NCBI GenBank assembly: GCA_002720375.1
Contig: PBIE01000044.1
Location: forward strand, 1 to 56,802
From: Crocinitomicaceae bacterium
Lineage (GTDB): Bacteria > Bacteroidota > Bacteroidia > Flavobacteriales_D > Sanyastnellaceae
Reading direction: 5' to 3'
Length of the DNA stretch: 56,802 bases
Position 1 is the first letter of the stretch; every line of letters starts with the position of its first letter. The notes under the pieces were generated by a model. The model saw nothing but the letters and a program-made list of their open reading frames with translations. It searched no databases and was not told the DNA's origin. A program made the position numbers and the translations under genes. Positions 11,951 to 56,802 of the stretch are shown one piece after another.

Positions 11951-14527
11951 TTAATGCATGAGGGCCAGGCGCAAAACAGATCCACTTCCTGTGTGCTCGA
12001 TAGCGTGCAGGGTGTAGACACCTGTTGGATGGTGCGACAAGTTCCAATCTAGCGATTGACCCGACATCCACATTTGGTCGACCATTCGACCCGCACCATC
12101 CCTCAAAACAAGATGTCCTTCGAAGTGGATACCAAATGTCAGATATAGCGACTTCCGAACGGGGTTCGGTGACGCCAGCATTTTGATGCCCGCCTGCTCG
12201 GAAATGCCCACCGGTACTTCCACCGTAATCGACACCGAACAACCGGTGTCGTCGGTCACTGTCAAGGTCCACTCTCCTGCCCCAAGGTCGTCTGGATCTT
12301 CCTGGCCAGCGTTACCATTGGGACCGGACCAAGAGAAATCATATGGCTCCGCACCTCCGGTTACTGTCACCGACACTTCACCATTTTCCTCATTGAGATT
12401 GGACCCTTCAATCGAATCGACCGTCACAGTCATTCCCGGCGGATCGACCACAGCAATGCTCGCCATATCAGTACATGTCGTTCCTGACGTCATCAAGACA
12501 GTCACTTCCACCGCATATTCACCAGCCGACAATTCGAGGAAGTTGCCTCCAATATCAGCCGACACGCCGTTCAAGGAATAGCCGATCACTGTCACGGAAT
12601 CAGATACGAAGGCCGAGATGTTGCCGTCATCTCCCCCGGCGCACTGCGGCGCAGAGGCCAAAAGAAACAGGGCCGGGTCCGGTGCGGGTTCGATTGTGAA
12701 TACCACCACTGCTCCACAGGTGGAATCTCCGTCCAACACTTCAAGTAAATAGTCTCCCGGGGCCAGAGAGTCAAAGGGTTCTCCCGTCCACTCCCCATTT
12801 AGCGTCACGGGTCCGGCCAAACCAAAAAATACGGAATCTGTCAACGCAGAATCCACTGTTAGTTCAGCTGAGCCATCCGACTCACCAAAACAACTTTCGC
12901 CCGCTACAGAAAGATTCGACAGAACCAAGTCACAATACGTACAACTGCCATCTTCCGTGGTGGCTTGAGGATTGAAATTCGAGGCAGCCGCATCCGTGCA
13001 CCCCACGCAGGAAGTGAATTCACAGTTGTCTGCATTAATGGTTGCCTCTTCGTCAAAATTGCAAGCCTCTGGGTTCAAACATCCAGCGCATGAGGAATAC
13101 TCACAAAGGCCGCTTTCAATGGTGGCCTCAGAACTGAAATTGCAGGCAAGAGGGTCCGTACATCCATAGCACGTAAAGTCGCACAAATCAAAGTCATTGA
13201 TGAATGCCGTGCTGTCGAAATTGCACGCCGAAGCGAGGCCACAACCGGCGCAAGTGGCATAATCGCATGATCCGTCATCGAAGGTCAAGAATGGATTGAA
13301 GTTGCAAGCCAAAGAGTCTTGGCACCCTCCAACTTCTGCCCCATCGCAGACGAGAACGAAATCGAAGCCCCCCACGGCTGGTGTAACTGCATTGGATCCA
13401 CTAACATGAAGTAGATACTCCACCCCTTCCTCACTCTCCCACTCTATTTCAGAGGCGAGAAAATTTTCGTAGCACGGTTCAGCAAAAAAGTCAGCCTCAT
13501 CCTGATCGTCATTTCCCGCCACACAGTCCAAGTTGCCACACTCTCCTTCGTACACGCTCAGATAAGTGTCGTAGCCAGTGTCCTCAAAACACATGGTGGC
13601 GCGTAAAGTGTCACCAGTTCCAGTGATGGTATACCAGAGCCCGCCATGGAAATATTCGCCGATGTTGTACTGGTCACAGTACGCACTCTCAGTTGTATCC
13701 GCGCAAACTGTGGTTGCCGTTACAATTTGACTGCAGGCGATGGGCTCTGCCATTGCACATTCATCGTTGGCCACCGGAAGGCAGAATCCATTGCAATCAA
13801 ATCCGCCTGTAGCGTAATAGCAACTGCCGTCCTCTTCAGTGTATACTGGGGCCCAATTGCATGCTTCCGGATCCGTACAGCCGGGAAACTCAAATGGATC
13901 ACAAACGCCATCTGCATCGACATCGCACAGACAATTCCCATCACAATCAAAACAGAAGAATGGATGCTCACAGCTGCCATCATCATCCGTTGCCAACGGA
14001 TTGAAATTGCACGCGTCTTCTTCCGTGCATCCCGGCACAGAACAGTCGGGAATTAGAACACCCGCCAGCAAAATGTCGCCAAGGCTGTCTGGAAGCGCGA
14101 GTGACGTGTCAGTGAGCAAGTCCACCGTAAGCAATGAGCCGTCCTCTTCCCAAGTCATGCTGGCTGAATCAAGAGGAATGTCGCCCAAATCCACAAAGAG
14201 AGACAACGGTTCGTCACCAGTGGAAATTTCGATCGTGAAATGAACCGCAGAGTCACCATTGGAAGGGACGTGGTTTGTTTCAAAAAGCAGTCCTTCTGAA
14301 AGCAAGCATGCGTGAGTTCCGTTGGAATTCGAAGCGCAGATAACATCAATTCCATCATCGTAGCCTGCGGTCCCTGCCGTGTCCAGTACGAGTGTACATC
14401 CTGAGGTTCCCGAAACAAATTCAGCCAGAAAGGAAACGGTGCCTTGAGGCACGCAAAGTGAATCCTGCGCCATTCCGCCAATTGATCCGAAAAGGAGTAA
14501 CACAAAAGTTGAAATATTCGACTTCAT
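11951..14527 (-). CDS. Secreted mosaic T9SS cargo protein A (858 aa): 7 Cys-rich motifs, PPC-like domain, SprB-like repeats, type-A T9SS C-terminal domain
   Basis: ATG 14527 gives the signal peptide MKSNISTFVLLLFGSIGGMAQ. Cys motifs such as GCTEEDACNFNPLATDDDGSCEH lie at 13808-14035 and 12932-13327. PPC-like block NDECAMAEP...GLWYTITG...DTYLSVYEGECGNLDCVAGNDD at 13343-13771. SprB-like units (TVTGGAEPYDFSWSGPNG) at 12212-12931. CTD LASPNPVRKSLYLTF...GVYTLHAI at 11954-12190. Confidence 0.85.
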   Translation of the reverse strand: MKSNISTFVLLLFGSIGGMAQDSLCVPQGTVSFLAEFVSGTSGCTLVLDTAGTAGYDDGIDVICASNSNGTHACLLSEGLLFETNHVPSNGDSAVHFTIEISTGDEPLSLFVDLGDIPLDSASMTWEEDGSLLTVDLLTDTSLALPDSLGDILLAGVLIPDCSVPGCTEEDACNFNPLATDDDGSCEHPFFCFDCDGNCLCDVDADGVCDPFEFPGCTDPEACNWAPVYTEEDGSCYYATGGFDCNGFCLPVANDECAMAEPIACSQIVTATTVCADTTESAYCDQYNIGEYFHGGLWYTITGTGDTLRATMCFEDTGYDTYLSVYEGECGNLDCVAGNDDQDEADFFAEPCYENFLASEIEWESEEGVEYLLHVSGSNAVTPAVGGFDFVLVCDGAEVGGCQDSLACNFNPFLTFDDGSCDYATCAGCGLASACNFDSTAFINDFDLCDFTCYGCTDPLACNFSSEATIESGLCEYSSCAGCLNPEACNFDEEATINADNCEFTSCVGCTDAAASNFNPQATTEDGSCTYCDLVLSNLSVAGESCFGESDGSAELTVDSALTDSVFFGLAGPVTLNGEWTGEPFDSLAPGDYLLEVLDGDSTCGAVVVFTIEPAPDPALFLLASAPQCAGGDDGNISAFVSDSVTVIGYSLNGVSADIGGNFLELSAGEYAVEVTVLMTSGTTCTDMASIAVVDPPGMTVTVDSIEGSNLNEENGEVSVTVTGGAEPYDFSWSGPNGNAGQEDPDDLGAGEWTLTVTDDTGCSVSITVEVPVGISEQAGIKMLASPNPVRKSLYLTFGIHFEGHLVLRDGAGRMVDQMWMSGQSLDWNLSHHPTGVYTLHAIEHTGSGSVLRLALMH

Positions 14528-14587
14528 GAGGGTTTCCGAGGGTATTTCTTTAGCCATTAAGATACCTCGCCAGCCGATAATAAAGCA

Positions 14588-14641: not shown

Positions 14642-17600
14642 TCAGTGACGGATGATCAACTGCTGATTGGCAAAGGATTGTCCCGATGTCAGGCGTACCT
14701 GGTAGACTCCGTCGGCCAGATTAGAGAAGTCCATTTGAACCTTTCCAGATAGGGTCATGCCTTCTTGACGGAAGACCCTGCGTCCGGCGCCATCAAATAC
14801 CTCGATAGTCGCGTCCTGAACAAGCTTGTTCATTTCCATGACCAGTTGGCCGTCTGTTGGATTTGGCATCAAGGCAATTTCAAGATCGCCTACCACTTCG
14901 GTCAAGCCAACAGTGGTGAGTATTACCACTTCCGTCTCCTCACATCCGTTCTCGTCGGTCACAGTTAAGGAATAGGTTCCGTCCGTGAGTCCAGCGATGT
15001 CCTCTGTGTCATAGTTTCCTTCTGGGCCTTCCCAGGCGAATCCAAGATCGCCAGTTCCACCTTCAACAGATATAGAGATTTGACCGTTTGGTGCGCCATC
15101 AGGGTCAATCGTTTCATCCACGGTGATGACAATAGCATCAGGCTCCTCGACCGTGGCGTTGATGTCTGCCTCACAACCATTTTCGTCTGTAGCGAATATG
15201 GTGTAAGGGCCTGCATCCAAGTCTTGAAAGTTGCCGTCAACGCTGGTTTCACCTGCAAGCTCGTAGGTAATGAGACCGGTTCCACCTTCTGATGTAGCTA
15301 CAATAGAACCGTTGCTGTCTCCATTGCAATTGACATCGTTGGCAAAGGCGAAGAGCATGATTGCCGCTGGCTCATTCACCAAGACTTCGAGAGTATCTGT
15401 ACACATCAGTGAGTCCATGGCAATGATTTTGTACGAGTCACCAGCCAATTGCTCAAATGTGAGGTTGTTTTGGAACAGGCCATCATTGAGTGCATAATTC
15501 ACGGAGCCGTATCCTCCTGTGGAGCCAGACACCATGATGCTACCATCCATGTCGCCAGCACACGTAACATCAAAAACAATTGCCGCAGTATCTATCGCAA
15601 GCTCACAGTAGAGACAAGTCTCATCGTCGACTGTTGCTGTAGGATCGAAATTGGCCGCGTCGGCATCGGTGCATCCAAAACAGCTGTAATCGCAAAGGCT
15701 CACATCATAATCAGTGGCGGTTGAATCGTAATTGCATGCCGTATCATCCAAACATCCGGCGATTTCGTCTTCGTCACAGATCGTGTCTCCGTCTGCGTCA
15801 TTAACACAGTTGCCATCGCAATCCACATTGTCCGTTCCATAAAGGTCAATTGGGAACAAGCAACCCGCATCAATGGTGGCGGTAGAGTCGAAGTTACAGG
15901 CCAAAGCTTGCATACATCCTGCGCAGCTTTCGTATTCACAACTGCCATCATCTTCTGTTGCATCTGGGTTGAAGTTGCAGGCCTCTTCATACACACAGCC
16001 ATTTACTTCAGCCTCATCACACGTCCCATCGCCGTCTGCGTCGTTCAAGCAGTTGCCCAAGCAGTCATAATAGGCTGCTCCGTAAATGTCTTCAGGGAAA
16101 AGGCAAGACAACGCCACATTGATGGTCGCTGTACTGTCGTAGTTGCATGCCAATTCATTGAGGCAGCCAGCACAACTCTCGTATTCACAAGATCCATCGT
16201 CGGTGTCTGCTGCGGGATTCCAATTGCATGCATTGAGGTCCAAACAACCATCGATGGAGGGAAGTAGCACCGCGTCAATAACGTGTACCACACCGTTTTC
16301 TGCATACAAGTCTGCAATGATGATTTCCGCATCGTCAATAAAGACAGAGCCACCACTGAAGGTGATGGTGGCCATTTGACCGTTAATTGTTTCAACCATC
16401 ATGCCGTTTGTCAGCATGTCACTTGTAACGGAATCGGCCACAACGTGGTAGGTCAGAACACTTGCCAAGCTCAATGGGTCAGCCAAGAGAGCATCGACAA
16501 CGTATGAAGGCAATGCTTCAACAGCGGCATCGGTTGGTGCAAACACTGTCCATGCACCGCCGTAAGTAAGGGTACTGTCCAATTCTGCAAGCACAATCAA
16601 ATCTTCTAAAACCGTGTGAGCTTCGCTGTCCGCAATGATATCGAATACACTGGCTGCTGGGTATTCACACATGCCATCATCGTCTGTTGCAGCAGAGTCA
16701 TAGTTGAGTGCAGCACTGTCTGTACAACCAGCGACTTCTTCCTCGTCACAAACACCATCGGCATCAGCATCGTTCAGACAGTTGCCATCGCAGTCGAGAT
16801 AATCGACCCCATACACATCCTCCGAATAGAGGCAATCGTAATCTGGAGCTATACAAGCATCTCCGATGTTGAAGTTGAGGTATAGCGAATTGGCACCGAC
16901 TCCATTTTCAAAGATCTGAACGTAGAAATTGCCTTCAACCTCTCCATCCGTCGTCAATTGCGCAATCAAGACCTCATTGTTGGGGTGGCTCGCTGCAATT
17001 CCATTGTTGTCCCCGTTCAATGCAAACCAGCTGCCTCCAACAGCATCATCCATAACGATGTTACCTCCTGGTGTTCCAAACCCAGGGTCGAAGTTGACTG
17101 TCCATGGATTATCCGCACTTTCCACTGTAGATATGGCTGCCTCACCAATGGTCGAGACAGGAGACTCGCTTAAACCAATGGTCACCCAGCTGTCATACTG
17201 CAAATCGGGGAGCGTGCCGAACAAAAAGGACACAATCGAATTGGGCGTCACGCCTCCAACTTCGTCCTGATAGAATTCTGTAGTGGTCGTGACGACCGTT
17301 GGATTGTTAACGTCTCCGGACACAGAACTCACAAAATCCGCTGGGTTAGCGCACTTTACATAGTACCTATATGTCGTCATGCCCGCGAGGTTACCTGCGG
17401 AATGGACAAGCACAGTGTCAATGACCAAACAGTAATCATCTTCTTCCACCGCTGCAGTTGGATCATAGTTACAAGCGTAAGGGTCGCCACAGCCTTCCTC
17501 TTCATCACACAAACCGTCACCATCCTCGTCATTTATGCAATCGCCGTTGCAGTCCAAATAATCCGCAGCTGGGTAAGTACAAGAGCCATCGTCGTACACA

Positions 17601-18712
17601 GCATCCACATCGTAGTTGCACGCCATTGAATCCATGCAACCAAAGATTTCGGTCTCATCACAGACCCCATTGCCGTTGACATCATTGAGACAATTGCCAT
17701 CGCAGTCCTCATAAAGGTCGGCGTACGTGCAGCTGTCGTTGTCATCAATCGTGGCTGTGTCATCGTAATTACAAGCGGAAGCATCAGTGCAACCCACGCA
17801 CGAGTCATATTCGCATGAACCATCATCATCGGTGGCACTGGCGTTGTAGTTACAGGCTCCTGCCGTGGTACAACCAGATGTTTCGTTTTCGTCACAAATG
17901 CCATCCATATCGGCATCGTTTATGCAGTCCCCGTTACAATCCAAGTACGCCTCTTCTGGATAGGTGCAAGAACCATCATCAGCGTCTGCCGCCTCGTCAT
18001 AGTTGCATGCTGCGGCATCAGTGCAGCCCTCGACAGCGCCAGTAGGCCATACAAACGTTGGAAGGTCTCCATCAACTAGGTATTGGTCAGTTCCCACTCC
18101 TCCCATGAAAATCTGAGTGTACAAGGACACACTGAGTTCACCTGTTGTAGTGAATTGTCCGACCAGCACCTTGAGGTCTTCACCCGCGAAACCATTAGCA
18201 TCGCCATTCAATGCATACCATGCACCGCCAATTGCGTCATCAATTATAATGTTGCCTCCTGCTAAGCCTCCACCGGGATCAAACGTGGTTGTCCAGGGGT
18301 TGATGCTCGACTGCACTGTTGATATAGCAGCCTCTCCAGCAAGAGCATCGGGTATTCCCTGCAGCCCAATCGTGACCCAACTGTCGTATTCAGTATCAGG
18401 GAACGCCCCAAAAAGAAGGCTGTTGATCCCGTTCGGTGTCGCAGCACCCAAGACAGCATGAAAAAAGTCGGTCGTCGTCGTCACTGATGTCGGATTTGGC
18501 GCGTCACCAGATATGGAACTGAGGAAATCATTTTCATTTTCCATGGTGATGTAAGCCCGATAACAACTGTAACCGGTCAAATCAATCGTTGCCGTCGGAC
18601 CGACCAGAAGGCCAATATCATCAGAGACAACCTCCACTTCCAGACCATAAGTCTGGGCGGATATTAAGGATGGTAATAGGCACAGGGCCAAAAGGAGCTT
18701 ATGCAGCTTCAT
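14642..18712 (-). CDS. Secreted mosaic T9SS cargo protein B (1356 aa): two copies of unrecognised ~180-aa module, 12 Cys-rich motifs, 6 TSP3-like acidic inserts, FAS1 domain, SprB-like repeats, T9SS C-terminal domain
   Basis: Signal peptide MKLHKLLLALCLLPSLISAQ. Module copies at aa 21-210 and 430-610. FAS1 at aa 688-818. SprB-like units such as VTCAGDMDGSIMVSGSTGGYG and ISVEGGTGDLGFAWEGPEG. CTD LMPNPTDGQLVMEM...GVYQVRLTSG at 14645-14890. Confidence 0.9.
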   Translation of the reverse strand: MKLHKLLLALCLLPSLISAQTYGLEVEVVSDDIGLLVGPTATIDLTGYSCYRAYITMENENDFLSSISGDAPNPTSVTTTTDFFHAVLGAATPNGINSLLFGAFPDTEYDSWVTIGLQGIPDALAGEAAISTVQSSINPWTTTFDPGGGLAGGNIIIDDAIGGAWYALNGDANGFAGEDLKVLVGQFTTTGELSVSLYTQIFMGGVGTDQYLVDGDLPTFVWPTGAVEGCTDAAACNYDEAADADDGSCTYPEEAYLDCNGDCINDADMDGICDENETSGCTTAGACNYNASATDDDGSCEYDSCVGCTDASACNYDDTATIDDNDSCTYADLYEDCDGNCLNDVNGNGVCDETEIFGCMDSMACNYDVDAVYDDGSCTYPAADYLDCNGDCINDEDGDGLCDEEEGCGDPYACNYDPTAAVEEDDYCLVIDTVLVHSAGNLAGMTTYRYYVKCANPADFVSSVSGDVNNPTVVTTTTEFYQDEVGGVTPNSIVSFLFGTLPDLQYDSWVTIGLSESPVSTIGEAAISTVESADNPWTVNFDPGFGTPGGNIVMDDAVGGSWFALNGDNNGIAASHPNNEVLIAQLTTDGEVEGNFYVQIFENGVGANSLYLNFNIGDACIAPDYDCLYSEDVYGVDYLDCDGNCLNDADADGVCDEEEVAGCTDSAALNYDSAATDDDGMCEYPAASVFDIIADSEAHTVLEDLIVLAELDSTLTYGGAWTVFAPTDAAVEALPSYVVDALLADPLSLASVLTYHVVADSVTSDMLTNGMMVETINGQMATITFSGGSVFIDDAEIIIADLYAENGVVHVIDAVLLPSIDGCLDLNACNWNPAADTDDGSCEYESCAGCLNELACNYDSTATINVALSCLFPEDIYGAAYYDCLGNCLNDADGDGTCDEAEVNGCVYEEACNFNPDATEDDGSCEYESCAGCMQALACNFDSTATIDAGCLFPIDLYGTDNVDCDGNCVNDADGDTICDEDEIAGCLDDTACNYDSTATDYDVSLCDYSCFGCTDADAANFDPTATVDDETCLYCELAIDTAAIVFDVTCAGDMDGSIMVSGSTGGYGSVNYALNDGLFQNNLTFEQLAGDSYKIIAMDSLMCTDTLEVLVNEPAAIMLFAFANDVNCNGDSNGSIVATSEGGTGLITYELAGETSVDGNFQDLDAGPYTIFATDENGCEADINATVEEPDAIVITVDETIDPDGAPNGQISISVEGGTGDLGFAWEGPEGNYDTEDIAGLTDGTYSLTVTDENGCEETEVVILTTVGLTEVVGDLEIALMPNPTDGQLVMEMNKLVQDATIEVFDGAGRRVFRQEGMTLSGKVQMDFSNLADGVYQVRLTSGQSFANQQLIIRH
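16259..16651 (-). other. Fasciclin (FAS1) domain inside protein B
   Basis: aa 688-818: VFDIIADSEAHTVLEDLIVLAELDSTL...WTVFAPTDAAVEAL...LTYHVV...NGVVHVIDAVLLP. These match the FAS1 H1, H2 and YH conserved blocks. Confidence 0.8.
16883..17425 (-). other. Unrecognised ~180-aa module, copy 2 of protein B (internal)
   Basis: MTTYRYYVKCANPADFVSSVSGD...LQYDSWVTIGLSE...GGSWFALNGDNNG...VLIAQLTTDGEVEG. It can be aligned along its whole length to copy 1 by eye. Confidence 0.7.
18083..18652 (-). other. Unrecognised ~180-190-aa module, copy 1 of protein B
   Basis: Shared motifs with three other copies in the window: T(Y)R.Y, DF[LV]S[SA][IV].GD, P[DE][LT].YDS[WFY]VTIG[LM], GE..I..V, W...F[DE]PG, GG[AS]W[FY].LNGD.NG.AG....VL[IV][GA]Q[FL]TT.G. 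Confidence 0.7.
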
Positions 18713-18882: not shown

Positions 18883-21336
18883 TTACTGCTTGACCACACG
18901 AATCACCTCCGTGGTGTTGGCCACATCAATACGCAAGAAATAAACACCGGACTCAAAACCGGCCAAGTCCATTCGTTCCATATGTGTTCCATTCAAATTA
19001 CCCAAGTCGTCACGGCTCACTTCACGGCCGAGGGCATCCACGATTACGGTGGATACAGACTCACCGGCAAGCCCAGAAAATTGAATCTCCACGTTGCCAC
19101 GGGTTGGGTTTGGAAACAGGGTCACCTCAACCAAGTTGAGAACCTCGTCAAGTCCACTCACCACGACAATCGTCGTGCTTGTGAACTCACATCCATTAGC
19201 GTCGGTAACGGTTACCGTGTAGTCACCTGCCGCAACACTTGAGGCGTCCTCATCTGTGCTCGTGAATCCTGGGCCTACCCAACTGTAGGAATATGGCGCT
19301 GTTCCGCCCGTGACGGAAATGTCAATCACACCGTCAGCCTCAGTCCCAGTGGCACCGTCATTGGCATCCACCGTTACCTCGATGGCGTCAGGAGATTCAA
19401 TGGTGACCGTTGTCGCGTTGCTGCACTCATTGTCGTCTTGGACCTCAATTGGGTAGGATCCTGCTGCCAATCCGCTTGCTTCGTTGCCGGGTCCGAAACC
19501 TGCATCGTTGATGTTGTAGGCATACCCCATTCCGCTGCCGCCAGTAGCGCTTACCACGATGGCTCCAGTTTCGTCTCCGTTGCAAAGAACATCCGTGACA
19601 GACGCATCAATTGTAATGTCTGCTGGCTCTTCAAGTGTGAGACTCGCATCGAAAATGCAACCGTTGCCATCAACAACTTCAATGGCAAAGTCTCCGCCTC
19701 CGACCATGCTCAAAATGACGTTGTCAAGGCTATCTCCATTATAAACATACACAAGCGGTGCGGTGCCGCCTTGGACCTCTAAGGCAACGGAACCGTCTGT
19801 ACCGCCGAAACAAGTGGGGCTCACAAGCTCAGCGAGCGACTCAAATTCAGATGGACTGCCAACTGTGACATCCACGAGCGTATCTGCACATCCATTCACA
19901 TCCTGAGCATAGAAGGTGTAGGTCCCTGCAGCCACTGTGAAGGTGTTTTCTGCGCTCATCGGCAAACCATCGGTGCCATATGTTGTGCCATTTCCACTGC
20001 CTCCAAAGTAGTTGAGGACAACAATCCCGTCCTCAGATCCCGGACAAAGGGTCGGGGCAACACCTTGGGCGTAAAGGTTGAAAGGTTGAGGCTGACTCAC
20101 CTGAATTCCAGGCGTATTGTCCATGCAACCATTGGCGTCCAACGCATATACGGTGTAAAGGCCAACACCCACATTTTCGAAAAGAAGTGTTTCAGACCCC
20201 ATTTCGAAATAAAGGCCTGCACCTGTATCTACTGGAGCTGTCATGCTGTACATCACAACACCTGTTCCGCCGGAGCTCATGCCACTCAGGACAGCGTCAG
20301 ATTCACCATTGCAGCTGATTGGGTCAGCCAAACTGGCAGTCACCACCAAAGGGTCAGGCGTTCCAACACCAAGGGTGGTGTCGACTGAACAGCCCACATT
20401 GTCAGTCACCGTTATTGTGACATCTCCTGCTGGAACTGAATTGAAAAGTCCAGTGGCGTTGGAGCTTACTCCGGTACTGAACATTAAGCTCCCCTGTCCC
20501 CCGGAGACTTCCAATGAAATCGTGCCGTCTGCATAGCCGCTGCATGTTACATCTCCAGTCGCAGCGGAGGTGATGACCAACTGAGTAGCTTCAAAATCAC
20601 AAGCGAAAACACAGGTTCCATCATCGTTTGTGGCGTCCATATTGAAGTTTGTGGCAGCCATGTCTGTGCAGCCGAAAATGGCGCCTGGGATACTGCTAAA
20701 AGGGAGCGTGATCAGCGTATCATTGTTTTGGTCCCCTCCTACGAAGGTCGCTACGCTTACAACGCCGAACAACGTCGTGTCCGTCGTGAATTGACCAATG
20801 AGCACCGTGCTGTCGGGTCCTGCGTATCCATTGTTATCCGGATAAAGAGGAAACCAACTGCCACCCGTTTGGGTATCGATAATCAAGTCAGATCCCGTCA
20901 TACCAGCGCCTGGCTCAAACGCAGGAACCCAATCGGACAAAGGATCACCAATGGAGTTAATTGTTTGCTCTCCAGCCTCACTGTTTGCTGGGGAATCCAT
21001 TCCGATGGTCACGAAACTGTCGTATTCCAAATCGGGAGATACAGGAAAGACCAGTGAGTTATAACCCTCATTTGTTAAGCCCCCTAAAGCGCTATGGAAA
21101 AAGTTATTGCCCCCCTGTATGATGGTGGGGAAATCAGCATCGCCGTATACGGCAGTCAAGAAATCGTCTGGTGAATTAAATTTTACGTAGAGACGATACG
21201 TGTTGTAACCTGTAAGGTCTACAGTTCCTACAACACCGATGTTTTCGGCATAGGTCTCCACGATAATTTCCGTGGCTTGAGAATAAGCAAGGGTGCTGCA
21301 GAAAACTGCAATCACACCGAGTAGCAATCGCTTCAT
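18883..21336 (-). CDS. Secreted T9SS cargo protein C (817 aa): unrecognised ~180-aa module, one Cys-rich motif, about 6 SprB-like repeat units, T9SS C-terminal domain
   Basis: ATG 21336 gives the signal peptide MKRLLLGVIAVFCSTLAYSQ. Cys motif GCTDMAATNFNMDATNDDGTCVF at 20605-20673. SprB-like units (VTCSGYADGTISLEVSGGQG, LCNGDETGAIVVSATGGSG, ISVTGGTAPYSYSWVGPG) at 19165-20601. CTD LFPNPTRGNVEIQF...GVYFLRID at 18886-19134. Confidence 0.9.
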   Translation of the reverse strand: MKRLLLGVIAVFCSTLAYSQATEIIVETYAENIGVVGTVDLTGYNTYRLYVKFNSPDDFLTAVYGDADFPTIIQGGNNFFHSALGGLTNEGYNSLVFPVSPDLEYDSFVTIGMDSPANSEAGEQTINSIGDPLSDWVPAFEPGAGMTGSDLIIDTQTGGSWFPLYPDNNGYAGPDSTVLIGQFTTDTTLFGVVSVATFVGGDQNNDTLITLPFSSIPGAIFGCTDMAATNFNMDATNDDGTCVFACDFEATQLVITSAATGDVTCSGYADGTISLEVSGGQGSLMFSTGVSSNATGLFNSVPAGDVTITVTDNVGCSVDTTLGVGTPDPLVVTASLADPISCNGESDAVLSGMSSGGTGVVMYSMTAPVDTGAGLYFEMGSETLLFENVGVGLYTVYALDANGCMDNTPGIQVSQPQPFNLYAQGVAPTLCPGSEDGIVVLNYFGGSGNGTTYGTDGLPMSAENTFTVAAGTYTFYAQDVNGCADTLVDVTVGSPSEFESLAELVSPTCFGGTDGSVALEVQGGTAPLVYVYNGDSLDNVILSMVGGGDFAIEVVDGNGCIFDASLTLEEPADITIDASVTDVLCNGDETGAIVVSATGGSGMGYAYNINDAGFGPGNEASGLAAGSYPIEVQDDNECSNATTVTIESPDAIEVTVDANDGATGTEADGVIDISVTGGTAPYSYSWVGPGFTSTDEDASSVAAGDYTVTVTDANGCEFTSTTIVVVSGLDEVLNLVEVTLFPNPTRGNVEIQFSGLAGESVSTVIVDALGREVSRDDLGNLNGTHMERMDLAGFESGVYFLRIDVANTTEVIRVVKQ
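20725..21276 (-). other. Unrecognised ~180-aa module, copy in protein C
   Basis: TVDLTGYNTYRLYVKFNSPDDFLTAVYGD...LEYDSFVTIGMDS...GGSWFPLYPDNNGYAGPDSTVLIGQFTTDT. Confidence 0.7.
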
Positions 21337-21449
21337 GCGTTGTTTGGTGTTAATTGTGAATCGATGCGCAATATAGACGCATCGAAGCACTCGTTCTATT
21401 CAATTCGTCTCATAGTAATGAAGGAATTTTCAAAGTGTCGGTAAGAGAA

Positions 21450-21498: not shown

Positions 21499-23253
21499 TT
21501 ACTTCACCGTTAGACGCAACGTGCTTCTGCGCATGCCATTCCGAACCTCGAAGAGATAAACACCAGATCGAAAGGCCTCCAGACTGTAGACTGACACCAA
21601 TCCAGGCACCACACGGGTGCGTTCGAATAAGACAACCTTACCGAAAAGATCGAATACGCGGATGTCCACGAGACCATCAAATCCATCAAAACGGACATTG
21701 AGCTGATCATCTGCGGGATTGGGGTATGCCTGCAGCCCTATAAAGTCCCTTACCTGCTCTATATCAACAACCGTGCTGACGGTGTCTCCATAGCAATCGA
21801 GACAACTTCCATAGCAGTAAGCGCCGAGCACTTCAGGTTGTCCTGATCGGACATGACTCCGATTAAATTCACCGAAAGGATTGGCCTGTCCACATCCACC
21901 TGATTCGAAATCGCCTAGCTCAGCGACGCTGTCGTCTTGGACACCATCGGGATAAGGGTCACCATTGCAAAATCGATATTCAAAAAACGCTGCTCCGGAC
22001 ACCTCGTAGGTCACATCGAATACGTTGTCTCCGTCTGTGTCGCTCATCTCCAAGGCACCCGCTTGCCACTGAGGCGATGTCATTCCACCAATCAACCAAA
22101 CTCCGTTTTCCGATACTGTTTCGTTGGTCATGTCCACTTGAAATACAATCGTTGCAGGCTCTGGATCTGCCACGCAGGTCTCAGAGCACTGATTGTAGCA
22201 ATATTGAACGGTGAGCGGATCACCCGTAACTGAGAACGCGCGGTTGCCATCTGTTGTGCATTCTCCCGGAGGGTTTTCATTGTCGATGTTGCCTTCTCCG
22301 TCCCCTCCCCAATTGTTGCCGTTAATAAACTTGAACTGATGATTCCCGGGAACCACGTCGATGGTAGCCTCATATATAAGGTCTCCATCATCATCGCTAA
22401 GAAAATCCACGCCTGGGGTCCACCCTTGGAAACTGCCGGCCACACAAACACCATTTCCAGAGACAGAAGCTTGTGTGCTCATGTCCACGCGGAACGTGAC
22501 CGCGCTCGGAGCGATGCATCCTCCGCACTGGTTGTAACAATGTGCTTGGCCAGCCGCAACCTCATACACCAAGTCTCCCCCATCAAGAGGCAAAAACCGA
22601 TTGCCCTGATTGGCGCACTCCCCTTCTAGATTTTCATCGAAGCCCCATGCATTTCCATTGACGAACTTGAACATGGCAGTGTCTACGGGATCGGTTGCCG
22701 CCCCATCAATGGTGGCGACATACGTATAAACCAGATCACCATCAGCGTCGTCCATCATCAGGAAGTTTGCTCCATCCCAAGCATTGAAGTTTCCATTCAT
22801 GTGCACGCCTACTGGGTTGATGGCATCCTCTTGACTCATGTCGACTTTAAACAAGACCGTGGTCGTGCCGCAGGCGCCACATTGACCAAAGCAAGGTGTG
22901 TCCAACGCCATCTCCCCCTCCAATTCGAAGTACCGGTTGGAGCCTCCATTCCAAGCACATGCTTCAGGCGCTGATTCATCCGCCCCCCATGCGTTTCCAT
23001 TGATGAACTTATACTCCACGATGTCGATTGTATCCGCCACATCTACAGTGACTTCATAAACCCCATCCATGTTGGTATCGGCCATTGGTGTCAAGGCGGG
23101 ATCCCAACCTTGGAAGTTGCCAGCGACATGCACGCCTACCGCATCATCGACGGCCTGATTGTTCATATCCACGCTGAATGTCACGGATACAGTCTGTGCC
23201 TGCACGGTCCATTCTAGAACCATTGCAAGCCAAAAGAAGGATGTTAATCTCAT
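21499..23253 (-). CDS. Secreted T9SS cargo protein D (584 aa) with four tandem CBM48/CBM20-like (AMPK-beta glycogen-binding-like) modules
   Basis: Signal peptide MRLTSFFWLAMVLEWTVQAQ. Four ~110-120-aa repeats, each F.VDM...GV.[VM].G.F..W......M.D.DGD.[VI]Y......G...FKF[IV]NGN.WG..E...C....NR...C[YF].[QS]C..C. CTD AYPNPADDQLNVRF...GVYLFEV at 21502-21747. Confidence 0.88.
   Translation of the reverse strand: MRLTSFFWLAMVLEWTVQAQTVSVTFSVDMNNQAVDDAVGVHVAGNFQGWDPALTPMADTNMDGVYEVTVDVADTIDIVEYKFINGNAWGADESAPEACAWNGGSNRYFELEGEMALDTPCFGQCGACGTTTVLFKVDMSQEDAINPVGVHMNGNFNAWDGANFLMMDDADGDLVYTYVATIDGAATDPVDTAMFKFVNGNAWGFDENLEGECANQGNRFLPLDGGDLVYEVAAGQAHCYNQCGGCIAPSAVTFRVDMSTQASVSGNGVCVAGSFQGWTPGVDFLSDDDGDLIYEATIDVVPGNHQFKFINGNNWGGDGEGNIDNENPPGECTTDGNRAFSVTGDPLTVQYCYNQCSETCVADPEPATIVFQVDMTNETVSENGVWLIGGMTSPQWQAGALEMSDTDGDNVFDVTYEVSGAAFFEYRFCNGDPYPDGVQDDSVAELGDFESGGCGQANPFGEFNRSHVRSGQPEVLGAYCYGSCLDCYGDTVSTVVDIEQVRDFIGLQAYPNPADDQLNVRFDGFDGLVDIRVFDLFGKVVLFERTRVVPGLVSVYSLEAFRSGVYLFEVRNGMRRSTLRLTVK
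21793..23190 (-). repeat. Four tandem protein-level repeats (carbohydrate-binding-module-like) in protein D
   Basis: Repeat boundaries are about aa 22-128, 131-246, 251-360 and 368-487. Each has the GSF.GW / HQFKFINGNNWG-type signature and four conserved Cys. Confidence 0.8.
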
Positions 23254-23290: not shown

Positions 23291-25192
23291 ATGCCTGTTG
23301 CACTTCGTCGATTGGAGTTATTGACCGTCGCCATTGGATTCTTCCTCGCTGGAGGTTTAGCACCTCATATTTGTCTTGCTCAATCCGAAAGTCCCACAGT
23401 GGTCAAGATGGAGCCCCCCCACTGGTGGAATGAGGGGACCGAAATGGCTTTTGTCTTGGTTCTTCATGGCGAAAACCTAGCCGATTGCACGGTGTCAACA
23501 CAAGCGCAAGGAATTCGTGTTTTATCCAACGAGCGCAGGTCCAGCCCCGATTTTCTCTTTGTTCGACTTGGAATCGAGTCTGGATGCCTGCCTGGAGACA
23601 AATATTTAATCCTCATGGATAACAGCGGCCACCAGCGCGATATCGTCTACCCCATCCGCGATGGGCGCATGCGTCCAATATGCGGTCAAGGCGTGGAATC
23701 AGGCTCTACCATGTACCTCATTATGCCCGATCGCTTTGCCAATGGCGATGAAGAAAACGACATGGGAGATGACCTTTTAGAAACCGGGGTCGATCGCGAG
23801 ACAATCGATGCGCGGCATGGGGGTGACCTGATCGGAATCAGTTCAAACGTGGATTATTTGGACGCATTGGGAGTGGATGCCGTCTGGCTGAACCCGGTTC
23901 TCCTTAACGACCAGCCTCGATGGAGCTATCATGGATATGCAGTGACAAACCACTACAAAGTCGACCCCAGGCTCGGCGGAAATGATGCCTACAAAAACAT
24001 GATTTCTATCTTCCACACCAGAGGCATACGGGTCATTCAGGACATCATCCTTAATCATTGGGGGCGCAACCATTGGATGCTGAACCCCCCTCCGGACAGC
24101 AGCTGGCTTCACCACTGGCCAGAATTTACACTGACCAACTACAACTGTAACGTGATGACTGACCCCCATGCAGTTGAACAAGAGGTCCTTGAGTTTAATC
24201 GGGGGTGGTTTGTCAAAGAAATGCCTGACTTGTCACCGAATGAAGATGCCATTCTCGCAGACATCCTGGTCCAAAATGCCCTCTGGTGGATCTCAGAGGC
24301 CGGTGTGGATGGATTTCGAATCGACACCTACCCATACTCCGATCAAGATTTTATGGTCTCCTTTGCCGACCGGATTCTCCGGCAACACCCGAATGCCTTT
24401 CTGTTTGGTGAATGCTGGGTGTCGAGCCCTTCTGCACAATCCGTATACCTTTCAGGAAGCGCGCTAGCATCGAGGGACACCCACCTGGAGAGCATTAAGG
24501 ATTTCCAGCTGTATTTCGCCATTCGGGACATGATTCAAGAGCCCCCTTCATGGCGAACGGGCATAACCCGCGTACACGGCATTCTGGGCCAGGATGGCGT
24601 CTACCCAAATCCTAACCGCTTGGTCACCTTTGTAGACAATCATGATACGGACCGCTGGCGGAGCACTGCTGGAGACCTCCAAAGAACCCGGTATGGCATT
24701 GGACTGGTGATGATGACCCGAGGCATTCCTTGCCTGTACTATGGGACAGAAATTGGAATGACGGGATTCGCAGCACCGGACGGCTTGGTGCGATGCGATT
24801 TTCCTGGCGGATGGACAGGAGACGCCAAAAATGCCTTCAACTCAACAGATCGAAACAAGGAGCAAGAGTCCCTTTGGCAATTCACGGCTTCACTCGGTCA
24901 GGCCCGTCGACGCTTTCGCGATGCCTTCTCTTCCCCGATGTCCCACCTCATTCCCAGAAATGGTCAGTATCATTTTTTGAGATCAGATGGCGAGCACCAC
25001 CTTTTGATTTTAACGAATGCGTCGGATAAGTCAACCGATTTGGATTGGTATCAGGTCGATCCACTCCGCAATGGTGCCAAGACATGCACTTCTCTCCTCG
25101 GGGAGTCTGGAGATGGGCCCGATTACCTCGACTGGGGCGCGCAACTCAAGCTAGAGCCTTGGCACTTCCAAGTCTACCTCATTGAGGACTGA
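23291..25192 (+). CDS. GH13 alpha-amylase-family glycoside hydrolase (cyclomaltodextrinase/neopullulanase-like) with signal peptide
   Basis: 633 aa. Motifs DRFANGD, HGGDLIGISSNVDYLDALGVDAVWLNPV, YHGYAVTNHYKVDPRLGG, region I VIQDIILNHWG, nucleophile region GVDGFRIDTYPY, acid/base FLFGECW, and region IV FVDNHDTDR. Confidence 0.92.
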   Translation: MPVALRRLELLTVAIGFFLAGGLAPHICLAQSESPTVVKMEPPHWWNEGTEMAFVLVLHGENLADCTVSTQAQGIRVLSNERRSSPDFLFVRLGIESGCLPGDKYLILMDNSGHQRDIVYPIRDGRMRPICGQGVESGSTMYLIMPDRFANGDEENDMGDDLLETGVDRETIDARHGGDLIGISSNVDYLDALGVDAVWLNPVLLNDQPRWSYHGYAVTNHYKVDPRLGGNDAYKNMISIFHTRGIRVIQDIILNHWGRNHWMLNPPPDSSWLHHWPEFTLTNYNCNVMTDPHAVEQEVLEFNRGWFVKEMPDLSPNEDAILADILVQNALWWISEAGVDGFRIDTYPYSDQDFMVSFADRILRQHPNAFLFGECWVSSPSAQSVYLSGSALASRDTHLESIKDFQLYFAIRDMIQEPPSWRTGITRVHGILGQDGVYPNPNRLVTFVDNHDTDRWRSTAGDLQRTRYGIGLVMMTRGIPCLYYGTEIGMTGFAAPDGLVRCDFPGGWTGDAKNAFNSTDRNKEQESLWQFTASLGQARRRFRDAFSSPMSHLIPRNGQYHFLRSDGEHHLLILTNASDKSTDLDWYQVDPLRNGAKTCTSLLGESGDGPDYLDWGAQLKLEPWHFQVYLIED

Positions 25193-55261: not shown

Positions 55262-56802
55262 TTATGGACAGGCCGTTCCATAGATCTGGAAGAAGTCCAA
55301 GAGGTCATTGATATTGATTGTGCCATCTCCGTTGAGGTCGCCAGGACATGGGGGAGTGTATTCGCAGCTGCCATCATTGGTATTGGCCAAGGCATTGTAG
55401 TTCTCCGCCATCGGATCCGTGCAGCCTTCCAGCGGAAGGATACAGCCCGAATTGAAGTTGGCATTCGGATCGTAGTTCAAGGCTGTCTCGTTTGTGCAAC
55501 CGGGATAGAGACATGAGCCATTGTCAATCAAGGCGTTCTCATCGAAATTGGCCGCATTTGTGTCGGTACAGCCCTCCGTCGGATAGGAGCAGAAGCCCTC
55601 GACATTGGCGTTCGGATCATAGTTGTCGGCAGCCGGGTCCATACACCCGAGGAACAGGCATGTGCCGTCGTCTTCCACGGCGGTGGCATCAAAGTTCACG
55701 GCAGCAGCATCCGTGCACCCTTCTATCGGATAGGAGCATTCCCCTTCCACATTGGCGGTTGGATTGAAATTGTCCGCTGCGGAATCCATGCACCCCAAGA
55801 GGATACAAGTTCCATCTTCATCTGTGGCAGAGGCCGCGTAGTTGAGTGCGCTCGGATTGGTGCAACCCGCAACTTCGTTTTCGTCGCAGATGCCGTCTCC
55901 ATCGACGTCATTCATGCAGGTCACTCCATCGCAATCGTAGACGCCTGCAAATTCACAACTGCCGTCATCATGTGTAACTGCTTCATCATAATTGCAAGCC
56001 GAAACATTCATACATCCGCACCCAGAGTTGCCAATGGGGAAGGTCATCACGAGGTCATTTTCGCCATCGCCCTCAGGGAAAACCTGAATGCTGATTTGAC
56101 CACTTAGCGATCCACTCGTAGTAAACTGGCCCAAGAGGACCCGAAGGTCATTTCCAGCTTGGGCGTTGGTGGCTCCATTCAAGGTGAACCAAGCTCCACC
56201 GAAGTCGCCTCCAATCACAAGGTCTCCCCCACTCTCAAATGGCTCTATCCAGTTCGAACCTTCACTTTGTACGGCGGTCACTTCAACCTCGCCTGCAAGG
56301 GCATTAGGAGCTTCCGTGAGGCCAATGGTCACATAGCTATCGAATGCCAATTCAGGTTGCAAGTCGAACAAGAACGGGTTGGTTGTCTGACCAAGGACGC
56401 CGCCTAACGGATCCTGATAGAACGTTGTACTTGTGCTGATGTTCGTCTCAAAGCCGCTCTCTCCCACAACGCTGGACAGCACGTCTGTGGAATTCACCAT
56501 CGTCGCATAAAGGCGGTAGGTCGTCATTCCGGGGATGCCACCCTCAGCCACGGTTTCCATCTCAATGCTGTATCCATCGATGGTCGGTGCGTTCAGACAA
56601 CTACAGAAATCGCAAGAGCCGTCGTCGACATTTGCCGCTTCGAAATAGTTACAAGCATCTGGGTCCATACACCCTCCGATTTCAGCCACGAGACATGAAC
56701 CATCATCCTCATCTGCGAGGGGGTTGTAGTTCAAGGCATTTGGATTGGTGCAACCGGCATAGAGGCAAGAACCATCTCCAGCCATCGCGCCAGGATTAAA
56801 GT
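55262..56802 (-). CDS. Secreted mosaic protein E, 5'-truncated by the window edge: at least 10 Cys-rich motifs, one unrecognised ~180-aa module, one TSP3-like insert, C-terminal dockerin/EF-hand-like motif
   Basis: The frame stays open to nt 56802; codons upstream of Met 56785 read FNPGA, continuing a Cys motif. Module at aa 70-245. C-terminus PGDLNGDGTININDLLDFFQIYGTACP. No T9SS CTD pattern seen. Confidence 0.85.
   Translation of the reverse strand, partial: FNPGAMAGDGSCLYAGCTNPNALNYNPLADEDDGSCLVAEIGGCMDPDACNYFEAANVDDGSCDFCSCLNAPTIDGYSIEMETVAEGGIPGMTTYRLYATMVNSTDVLSSVVGESGFETNISTSTTFYQDPLGGVLGQTTNPFLFDLQPELAFDSYVTIGLTEAPNALAGEVEVTAVQSEGSNWIEPFESGGDLVIGGDFGGAWFTLNGATNAQAGNDLRVLLGQFTTSGSLSGQISIQVFPEGDGENDLVMTFPIGNSGCGCMNVSACNYDEAVTHDDGSCEFAGVYDCDGVTCMNDVDGDGICDENEVAGCTNPSALNYAASATDEDGTCILLGCMDSAADNFNPTANVEGECSYPIEGCTDAAAVNFDATAVEDDGTCLFLGCMDPAADNYDPNANVEGFCSYPTEGCTDTNAANFDENALIDNGSCLYPGCTNETALNYDPNANFNSGCILPLEGCTDPMAENYNALANTNDGSCEYTPPCPGDLNGDGTININDLLDFFQIYGTACP
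55433..55873 (-). repeat. Three tandem 147-nt (49-aa) super-repeats, each made of two Cys-rich motifs
   Basis: Units start at aa 305, 354 and 403 of the visible ORF: [VIT][AE]GCT[ND]..A.N[YF]..........[GT][ST]?C..[LP]GC[MT][DN].[AT]A[DL]N[FY][ND]P.AN....C[SI][YL]P. The first two units are also recognisably similar at DNA level (CGGATAGGAGC at 55580 and 55727). Confidence 0.75.
56051..56578 (-). other. Unrecognised ~180-aa module, copy in protein E
   Basis: GMTTYRLYATMVNSTDVLSSVVGE...LAFDSYVTIGLTE...GGAWFTLNGATNAQAGNDLRVLLGQFTTSGSLSG. Confidence 0.7.

Follow-up and report, generated by a model that had tools for sequence, protein, structure and literature searches.

What is the segment of about 180 residues that recurs four times in three long proteins encoded on a single contig of a marine bacterium, and what might such a segment do at the cell surface? 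The stretch of DNA in question (the window) is 56,802 bp long and represents the entire contig of a marine metagenome-assembled genome (MAG), deposited as "Crocinitomicaceae bacterium". Three of its genes, here called B, C and E, encode the segment, referred to below as the module. The module constitutes an undescribed family, as judged against Pfam-A, NCBIfam, PDB and BFVD. The proteins that carry it come from uncultured marine Flavobacteriales of the Crocinitomicaceae type and combine a new head domain with a known kind of protein. Its position and the architecture of these proteins suggest that the module is a distal binding module, adhesive or lectin-like, of surface proteins exported via a type IX secretion system (T9SS), a reading to which we assign a probability of about one half.

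The four copies, with the envelopes and independent E-values (i-E) from a hidden Markov model (HMM) of the family, are as follows.

18083-18652, minus strand: module copy 1 of B (residues 21-210), directly behind the signal peptide; HMM envelope 18092-18601, i-E 1.4e-61
16883-17425, minus strand: module copy 2 of B (residues 430-610), internal, between Cys-rich runs; HMM envelope 16895-17413, i-E 5.3e-61
20725-21276, minus strand: module of C, directly behind the signal peptide; HMM envelope 20728-21246, i-E 1.2e-57
56051-56578, minus strand: module of E, internal, with two Cys motifs upstream (E residues 22-63); HMM envelope 56063-56563, i-E 1.4e-64

A first-pass annotation, made by reading the sequence, had already placed four segments of ~180 residues in three proteins at these coordinates, and three approaches agree with it. 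The copies can be aligned end to end over 193 columns, 35 of which are invariant, and the others are 41-54% identical to copy 1. In pairwise BLASTP comparisons, identity is 36-55% over 164-180 residues (E-values from 5e-35 to 2e-60). When all six translated frames of the window are searched with the family HMM, it picks out precisely these four places (i-E 1e-57 to 1e-64), the next match having E=6. At the DNA level, the best alignment between copies reaches 69% over 140 nt. Because the DNA of the copies barely aligns, they are the products of old paralogous duplications, and a recent DNA repeat or an assembly artefact is ruled out.

The genes that contain these copies are organized as follows.

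14642-18712, minus strand: gene B, 1356 residues (MBK12939.1, "hypothetical protein"); signal peptide, module, Cys run, module, Cys run, fasciclin domain, Cys run, SprB repeats, T9SS C-terminal domain (CTD)
18883-21336, minus strand: gene C, 817 residues from the ATG at 21336 (MBK12940.1); signal peptide, module, single Cys motif, SprB repeats, T9SS CTD
55262-56802, minus strand: gene E, 5' end truncated at the edge of the window; Cys motifs, module, Cys run, dockerin/EF-hand-like C-terminal tail, no T9SS CTD

A signal peptide of ~20 residues precedes the module in B and C, while copy 2 of B and the copy of E are internal, as the initial reading had it. The same reading held that a run of Cys motifs always follows the module. 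A motif is indeed found behind all four copies in the window, but C has a single motif in place of a run, and across the family 151 of 230 cases have one in the next 70 residues. Gene E is represented by its 3' portion at the right edge of the window, from 55262 to beyond 56802. For C, the mechanical open reading frame (ORF) opens at a GTG at 21390; the ATG at 21336 gives a protein beginning MKRLLLGV with a typical signal peptide and is very probably the true start, matching the 817-residue GenBank protein.

No known relative of the module was found in the libraries searched (2025-era Pfam, NCBIfam of June 2026 and a 2026 copy of the PDB). Neither Pfam-A (24,736 models) nor NCBIfam has a match on the module regions of B, C and E at E<=0.1. 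A Pfam/NCBIfam census of 79 relatives listed only other, recognizable domain types; the precomputed Pfam column is blank for nearly all of 120 listed homologues, its few entries being unrelated domains; and NCBIfam at E<=1 yielded noise and one sub-threshold CTD for eight short relatives. Profiles built from 4 and 43 sequences had no matches among PDB sequences at E<=10 (hmmsearch). In the literature, we found no paper with the motif strings, and a search on T9SS/SprB/fasciclin architectures likewise turned up none on the module; a paper on TANFOR polymorphic toxins was set aside, the N-terminal domain described there being different from the module. Every named database entry of the family is a "hypothetical protein".

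The module comprises ~170-180 residues, is free of Cys and is mostly beta-strand. An AlphaFold2 model of the module alone, computed from a 40-sequence alignment, has a predicted local distance difference test score (pLDDT) of 96.6 and a predicted template modelling score (pTM) of 0.91. The model consists of about 11 strands and two short helices, with a loop-rich portion (residues ~60-135) that holds the YDSWVTIG and WxxxF motifs. The modelled fold is probably a beta-sandwich with a loop-rich insert of ~75 residues bearing PxLxYDSWVTIG and WxxxF. Foldseek gave no match to the PDB at E<=1e-3 (best E=0.04, TMq 0.34), and the best match in BFVD has a TM-score (TM) of 0.32. The insignificant PDB matches are generic beta-sandwiches such as cohesins, family 3 carbohydrate-binding modules (CBM3), pilins and DUF4466. 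The predicted fold is possibly also undescribed, as judged against PDB and BFVD. The suggestion that the module is unrecognized was therefore borne out by searches of Pfam-A, NCBIfam, PDB sequences and PDB and BFVD folds, the last with a confident model that found no structural neighbor.

The motif islands that had been picked out by eye survive proper alignment. In a non-redundant set of 195 relatives, filtered at 80% identity, the islands TTYRxY, DxxSxVxG, PxLxYDSWVTIG, WxxxF, GGxW[FY], NGxAG and VLxxQxTTxG are kept. Residues present in at least 80% of these relatives are, in copy-1 numbering, G27, T30, Y31, R32, Y34, D42, G49, P85, D90, S91, T94, I95, G96, F124, G132, G142, W145, N153, V162, L163, Q166, T168, T169, G171, G175, Q180, F182 and G185. 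The polar residues Q166 (100%), D90 (99%), T168 (97%) and D42 (96%) are among the most conserved.

The family is large and occurs widely in ocean metagenomes. A HMMER scan of 1.84 billion representative proteins returned 2119 clusters (50% identity) at E<=1e-3 and 298 at E<=1e-30, with one to five copies per protein and a longest protein of 3529 residues. With one genome scanned for each GTDB species, at least 564 module stretches were confirmed, and nearly all of the best 80 of these are labelled as uncultured Flavobacteriales, Crocinitomicaceae or Bacteroidota MAGs. Many paralogues are present per genome, with seven or more separate loci in individual MAGs. A search seeded with a divergent member for wider taxonomy returned one match, and no relative was found on viral contigs. 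One module-bearing contig of 147,789 bp (locus L028) was deposited under a Nitrosopumilus (archaeal) MAG and is presumably a mis-binned Flavobacteriales contig.

The module is an autonomous unit, since there are proteins of 203 residues that have nothing besides a signal peptide and the module (P0105, P0107 and P0114). Its place in longer proteins is at the N-terminal tip: among 54 complete module genes in related genomes, the first copy lies within 60 residues of the start codon in 51, and 137 of 255 full-length copies begin before residue 70. In the rare non-tip cases (3 of 54), ~650 residues of HYR-like 4-Cys repeats precede the first module, for example in a 1650-residue ORF (region L041:1211-2861) and in P0121. 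A subfamily of ~294-310 residues (P0047, P0050 and P0058) has a signal peptide, the module and a C-terminal tail of ~80 residues, which is not recognized as a T9SS CTD by Pfam or NCBIfam. One gene of this type (L080, the contig carrying P0058) lies 2 kb from an alpha-amylase with CBM48; the genomic contexts of P0114 and P0058 are otherwise uninformative.

The partner domains are of adhesion or structural types. A census of 79 members found Por_Secre_tail in 19, SprB in 10, Binary_toxB Ca-binding in 8, HYR_4C in 7 and TSP3_bac in 6, as well as LTD, TIG and fasciclin domains, and none of the 79 contains a catalytic domain of the glycoside hydrolase, polysaccharide lyase (PL) or peptidase type. 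A CTD profile derived from the window detects a T9SS CTD in 29 of the 54 complete genes, a count that is a lower bound.

The elements of B and C that surround the module and bear on export are listed here.

18653-18712, minus strand: signal peptide of B, MKLHKLLLALCLLPSLISAQ, read from the translation
17417-18037, minus strand: Cys run 1 of B (residues 226-432), no Pfam match
16643-16882, minus strand: Cys run 2 of B (residues 611-690), from the translation
16259-16615, minus strand: fasciclin (FAS1) domain of B (residues 700-818), PF02469, E 8.7e-30
15608-16255, minus strand: Cys run 3 of B (residues 820-1035), from the translation
14903-15607, minus strand: SprB-repeat region of B (about residues 1036-1270), PF13573, E 2.5e-12, two stretches
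14645-14866, minus strand: T9SS type A CTD of B (residues 1283-1356), PF18962 E 2e-11, TIGR04183 E 7.5e-10
18886-19119, minus strand: T9SS type A CTD of C, PF18962 E 3.2e-11, TIGR04183 E 4e-12

The signal peptide of C, MKRLLLGVIAVFCSTLAYSQ, was likewise read from the translation, and both signal peptides were judged by eye. The module starts 1-3 residues past the predicted cleavage site, which in B falls between SA and QTYGLEV; cleavage before this Gln is what we assume from the Bacteroidetes Q-rule. The CTD of B scores 44.4 bits with PF18962 (cut-off 27) and 38.7 bits with TIGR04183 (cut-off 23), and that of C scores 43.8 and 45.9 bits, respectively. SprB repeats (PF13573) are also present in C (E 3.6e-26, four stretches) and in the neighboring gene A (E 3.7e-09). 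With a signal peptide and a CTD above the cut-offs, B and C have the sequence features of T9SS type A cargo. Two reports (PMC9143113, PMC10202324) give two fates for cargo of this type, anchoring at the cell surface or release.

These features suggest how the module might function as a distal binding head. If the type A cargo is surface-attached, the processed C-terminus would be the proximal end, and the module at the mature N-terminus would be the distal tip of a stalk that combines disulfide-rich/Ca-binding mini-repeats with SprB repeats and, in B, with a fasciclin domain. The module would be the far end because the anchored C-terminus lies at the opposite terminus and the module follows the cleavage site. 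Further copies along the stalk would add valency. The module may then tether the cell, or capture material, via a ligand common to the paralogues, which might be a glycan at the surface of algae or particles. No mechanism is seen here beyond what modular adhesins are already known to do. The initial interpretation had called the module the functional, ligand-binding head on account of its distal position on stalk-like proteins. That position is upheld by the 51 of 54 first copies near the start and by the CTDs of B and C at the opposite terminus, and the lack of a known family stands as well; the binding function, like the surface anchoring and the glycan or particle ligand, is what we infer from position and architecture.

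Several results weigh against a binding head. Profile searches, Foldseek and hhalign found no ligand, no binding site and no sequence or fold likeness to a lectin, CBM or adhesin. The most strongly conserved positions fall in predicted core strands and may only define the fold. Additional internal copies occur often, with as many as five in one protein, which makes the module not just a head but also a repeated bead. Mean identity among orthologues is 0.69-0.74 for the module vs 0.64-0.77 for the stalk, and this region-wise comparison shows neither extra constraint nor diversification of the module. Release of type A cargo is possible; E and other members have no T9SS CTD, hence anchoring is not uniform. 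The 75 non-redundant ORFs that flank module genes are housekeeping genes, with no SusC/SusD or recurrent partner except the orthologue of gene D, described below.

The C-terminus of E offers another kind of ending, which matters for one of the alternatives.

55265-55354, minus strand: C-terminal tail of E, PCPGDLNGDGTININDLLDFFQIYGTACP, with one dockerin/EF-hand-like Ca loop bracketed by Cys; EF-hand_1 E 0.013, sub-threshold

The tail follows the pattern C-x1-4-D-x-[ND]-x-[DN]-G-x-[IVL]..D[LV]L...C-x0-4-end. In related MAG loci (L010, L018, L027, L031, L036, L040, L041, L044, L052, L053, L058, L061, L064 and L066), 17 ORFs have it at their very C-terminus, 8 of these ORFs also carrying the module, and P0034 and P0147 share it. 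As a dockerin the tail falls short, having one Ca loop, no duplicated 22-residue segment and no match to Pfam Dockerin_1. The tail may act as a signal of another kind for sorting, anchoring or docking.

The points just listed can also be read as signs of a structural element that has no external ligand, such as a cap at the N-terminus, a bead that serves as a spacer or a domain for self-association that stiffens, spaces or bundles stalks or fibrils. Up to five copies, threaded like beads between Cys runs, conserved residues that mostly belong to core strands, an evolutionary rate equal to that of the stalk and a lack of binding-domain similarity in PDB and BFVD by Foldseek are all consistent with such a role. 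It is harder to reconcile with the secreted forms that consist of signal peptide and module only, which would be odd for a spacer, with the preference for the extreme mature N-terminus in 51 of 54 genes, unexpected of a generic spacer, and with the conserved polar residues Q166, D90, T168 and D42, which exceed typical packing needs. We regard a purely structural role as fairly unlikely. The module could instead be a divergent member of a family already described outside Pfam, NCBIfam and PDB, for example a recent CBM family in CAZy, an entry found only in InterPro/CDD or an AFDB/TED fold cluster. Pfam lacks models for many of the newer CBM families, which leaves room for this explanation. It is nevertheless doubtful, given that Pfam and NCBIfam have nothing at E<=0.1, that the PDB has nothing by profile at E<=10 or by fold, that named database entries are all "hypothetical protein" and that the motif strings occur in no paper found.

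Two further explanations assign the module a defined biochemical activity. One is a cohesin-like docking domain that binds E-type tails, with CTD-anchored B and C displaying partners that have no CTD, in the manner of a cellulosome scaffold. Several of the best PDB matches by Foldseek are type I/II cohesins or CBM3 (5lxv, 5k39, 2y3n, 1zv9, 4u3s, 4fl4 and 6kgc), and E and the 17 related ORFs, 8 of them module-bearing, end in a dockerin-like Ca loop instead of a T9SS CTD, an ending shared by P0147 and P0034. The matches are insignificant (E>=0.04, probability <=0.47, TM 0.21-0.36), however, as expected of any beta-sandwich query, and a single Ca loop is not the duplicated dockerin segment that Pfam Dockerin_1 would match; docking of this kind is very unlikely. 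The other is a small catalytic domain, such as a polysaccharide lyase or esterase of the beta-jelly-roll kind with extracellular polymers as substrates. The invariant polar residues R32, Y34, D42, D90, S91 and Q166 could form an active site, stand-alone forms are secreted, and the gene cluster adjoins a glycoside hydrolase family 13 (GH13) gene and includes a CBM48 protein. Yet Foldseek reveals no fold likeness to jelly rolls of the PL7/PL18 type or to any enzyme, no conserved His or other canonical catalytic set is present, and catalytic domains are not typically found repeated in tandem, up to five times, on stalks of the adhesin type, making an enzyme the most improbable of the roles considered here. 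A bolder form of the binding-head reading holds that an unseen fold serves as the recognition head of a lineage-specific adhesion system in abundant uncultured marine Flavobacteriales, either as a new CBM/lectin-type class that binds glycans or particles or as a cohesin-like receptor for E-type tails; we put this forward tentatively and consider it unlikely.

B and C can be compared with several known systems. They resemble SprB and RemA of Flavobacterium johnsoniae in having a Sec signal peptide, a long repetitive stalk with SprB repeats, a C-terminal T9SS sorting domain and a stalk-borne, presumably ligand-recognizing module. RemA reportedly carries a lectin domain; the module has no sequence or fold likeness to it. 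B and C also differ from SprB in their type A CTD (type B in SprB) and far smaller size (817-1356 residues), and from both proteins in a stalk made up mainly of a Cys-rich 'CNYD' mini-repeat absent from Pfam. An assignment of B and C as SprB-type gliding adhesins was rejected: SprB repeats are present, but the CTD is of type A, the size is modest and no gld/spr genes are found in the window. In size (150-190 residues), mostly beta structure, extracellular location and tandem occurrence, the module is similar to CBMs, lectin beta-sandwiches such as CBM3, and cohesins, and its weak Foldseek matches are to CBM3, type II cohesins and DUF4466. The similarity to CBM3 and cohesins is insignificant (Foldseek probability 0.06-0.38, TM 0.19-0.36, E>=0.04), with no sequence match, and, unlike CBMs, the module is joined to no catalytic domain in the 79 members. 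DUF4466 (PDB 4ei0), the second-ranked Foldseek match, is likewise lineage-restricted, secreted, beta-rich and known from sequence alone, although the TM to 4ei0 is 0.27-0.28 and no Pfam model matches the module. In concept, the arrangement is reminiscent of giant RTX adhesins such as MpIBP of Marinomonas primoryensis, where a Ca-stabilized repetitive stalk projects small binding modules from a marine bacterium. MpIBP is said to bind diatoms and ice. It differs in using the type I secretion system rather than T9SS, in having its distal end at the C-terminus rather than the N-terminus, and in its unrelated domains.

Uncultured Flavobacteriales are major consumers of oceanic algal organic matter, and attachment to particles and phytoplankton is central to their lifestyle. 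The module family, with more than 2000 clusters and many paralogues per genome, stands unannotated where surface proteins first meet their surroundings. If the module is a binding domain, the identity of its ligand would explain what these cells attach to, a new fold would be added to the lectin/CBM repertoire, and thousands of marine "hypothetical proteins" would become annotatable as adhesins. If it is structural only, the gain would be a new entry of the Pfam type and T9SS cargo whose domains can be parsed better. The module merits such an entry and a binding screen.

The remaining genes near B and C are relevant to the setting of the module.

11951-14557, minus strand: gene A, 868 residues (MBK12938.1); Cys run, SprB repeats, weak CTD, no module
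21499-23253, minus strand: gene D, 584 residues; four CBM48/AMPK1_CBM-like repeats and a T9SS CTD
23291-25192, plus strand: GH13 alpha-amylase/cyclomaltodextrinase-like gene, with signal peptide, divergent from D

On the minus strand, D (21499-23253), C (18883-21336), B (14642-18712) and A (11951-14557) form one row. Four surface-protein genes (locus tags CL849_05345 to CL849_05360; MBK12938 to MBK12941) are all labelled "hypothetical protein" in GenBank. Protein A has the stalk chassis of B and C (Cys run, SprB repeats, CTD) with different, unrecognized N-terminal regions at residues ~45-190 and ~270-420, the second containing HGGLWYTITGTGD. An hhalign comparison of the family profile with the N-terminal 386 residues of A detected no relationship; A vs B and C looks like head-swapping on a common chassis. 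Protein D consists of four tandem CBM48/AMPK1_CBM/X25-like repeats, each closing with a CxxC-type Cys cluster, and a T9SS CTD. Comparison of the family profile with these repeats by hhalign gave a probability of 0.2% and one aligned column, and with no profile similarity to D the module was rejected as a CBM48/CBM20-like starch-binding module. The co-directional D-C-B-A cluster, with D first, is conserved in 14-20 related MAG loci, and a secreted GH13 amylase adjoins the cluster, divergent from D, in 8 related loci. The cluster and its GH13 gene are a weak hint of glycan or particle capture, and D-C-B-A with GH13 may represent a surface alpha-glucan capture unit.

The remainder of the contig is ordinary chromosome, with genes for rho, a RecQ-type helicase, PNP oxidase, PhoD, fmt, methylmalonyl-CoA mutase, LptF/G, glycosyltransferases, HtrA and arginyl-tRNA synthetase (ArgRS). 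A mobile or phage origin was rejected on account of this housekeeping context. No T9SS component genes are located within the window.

The Cys-rich stalk itself is composed of two alternating units, a ~25-residue unit a (GCTDxxACNYDxxAxxDDGSCxY) and a TSP3-like unit b (DCxGxCxNDxDxDGxCDExE). In addition to the runs of B, it is present at two further places.

55355-56023, minus strand: Cys-rich stalk of E
about 12950-14040, minus strand: Cys-rich stalk of A

An a-b-a segment modelled with AlphaFold2 (pLDDT 82.7) shows tiny beta-hairpin knots, for which Foldseek found no PDB neighbor. Unit a has no Pfam or NCBIfam model and is an undescribed repeat that is very abundant in related MAGs.

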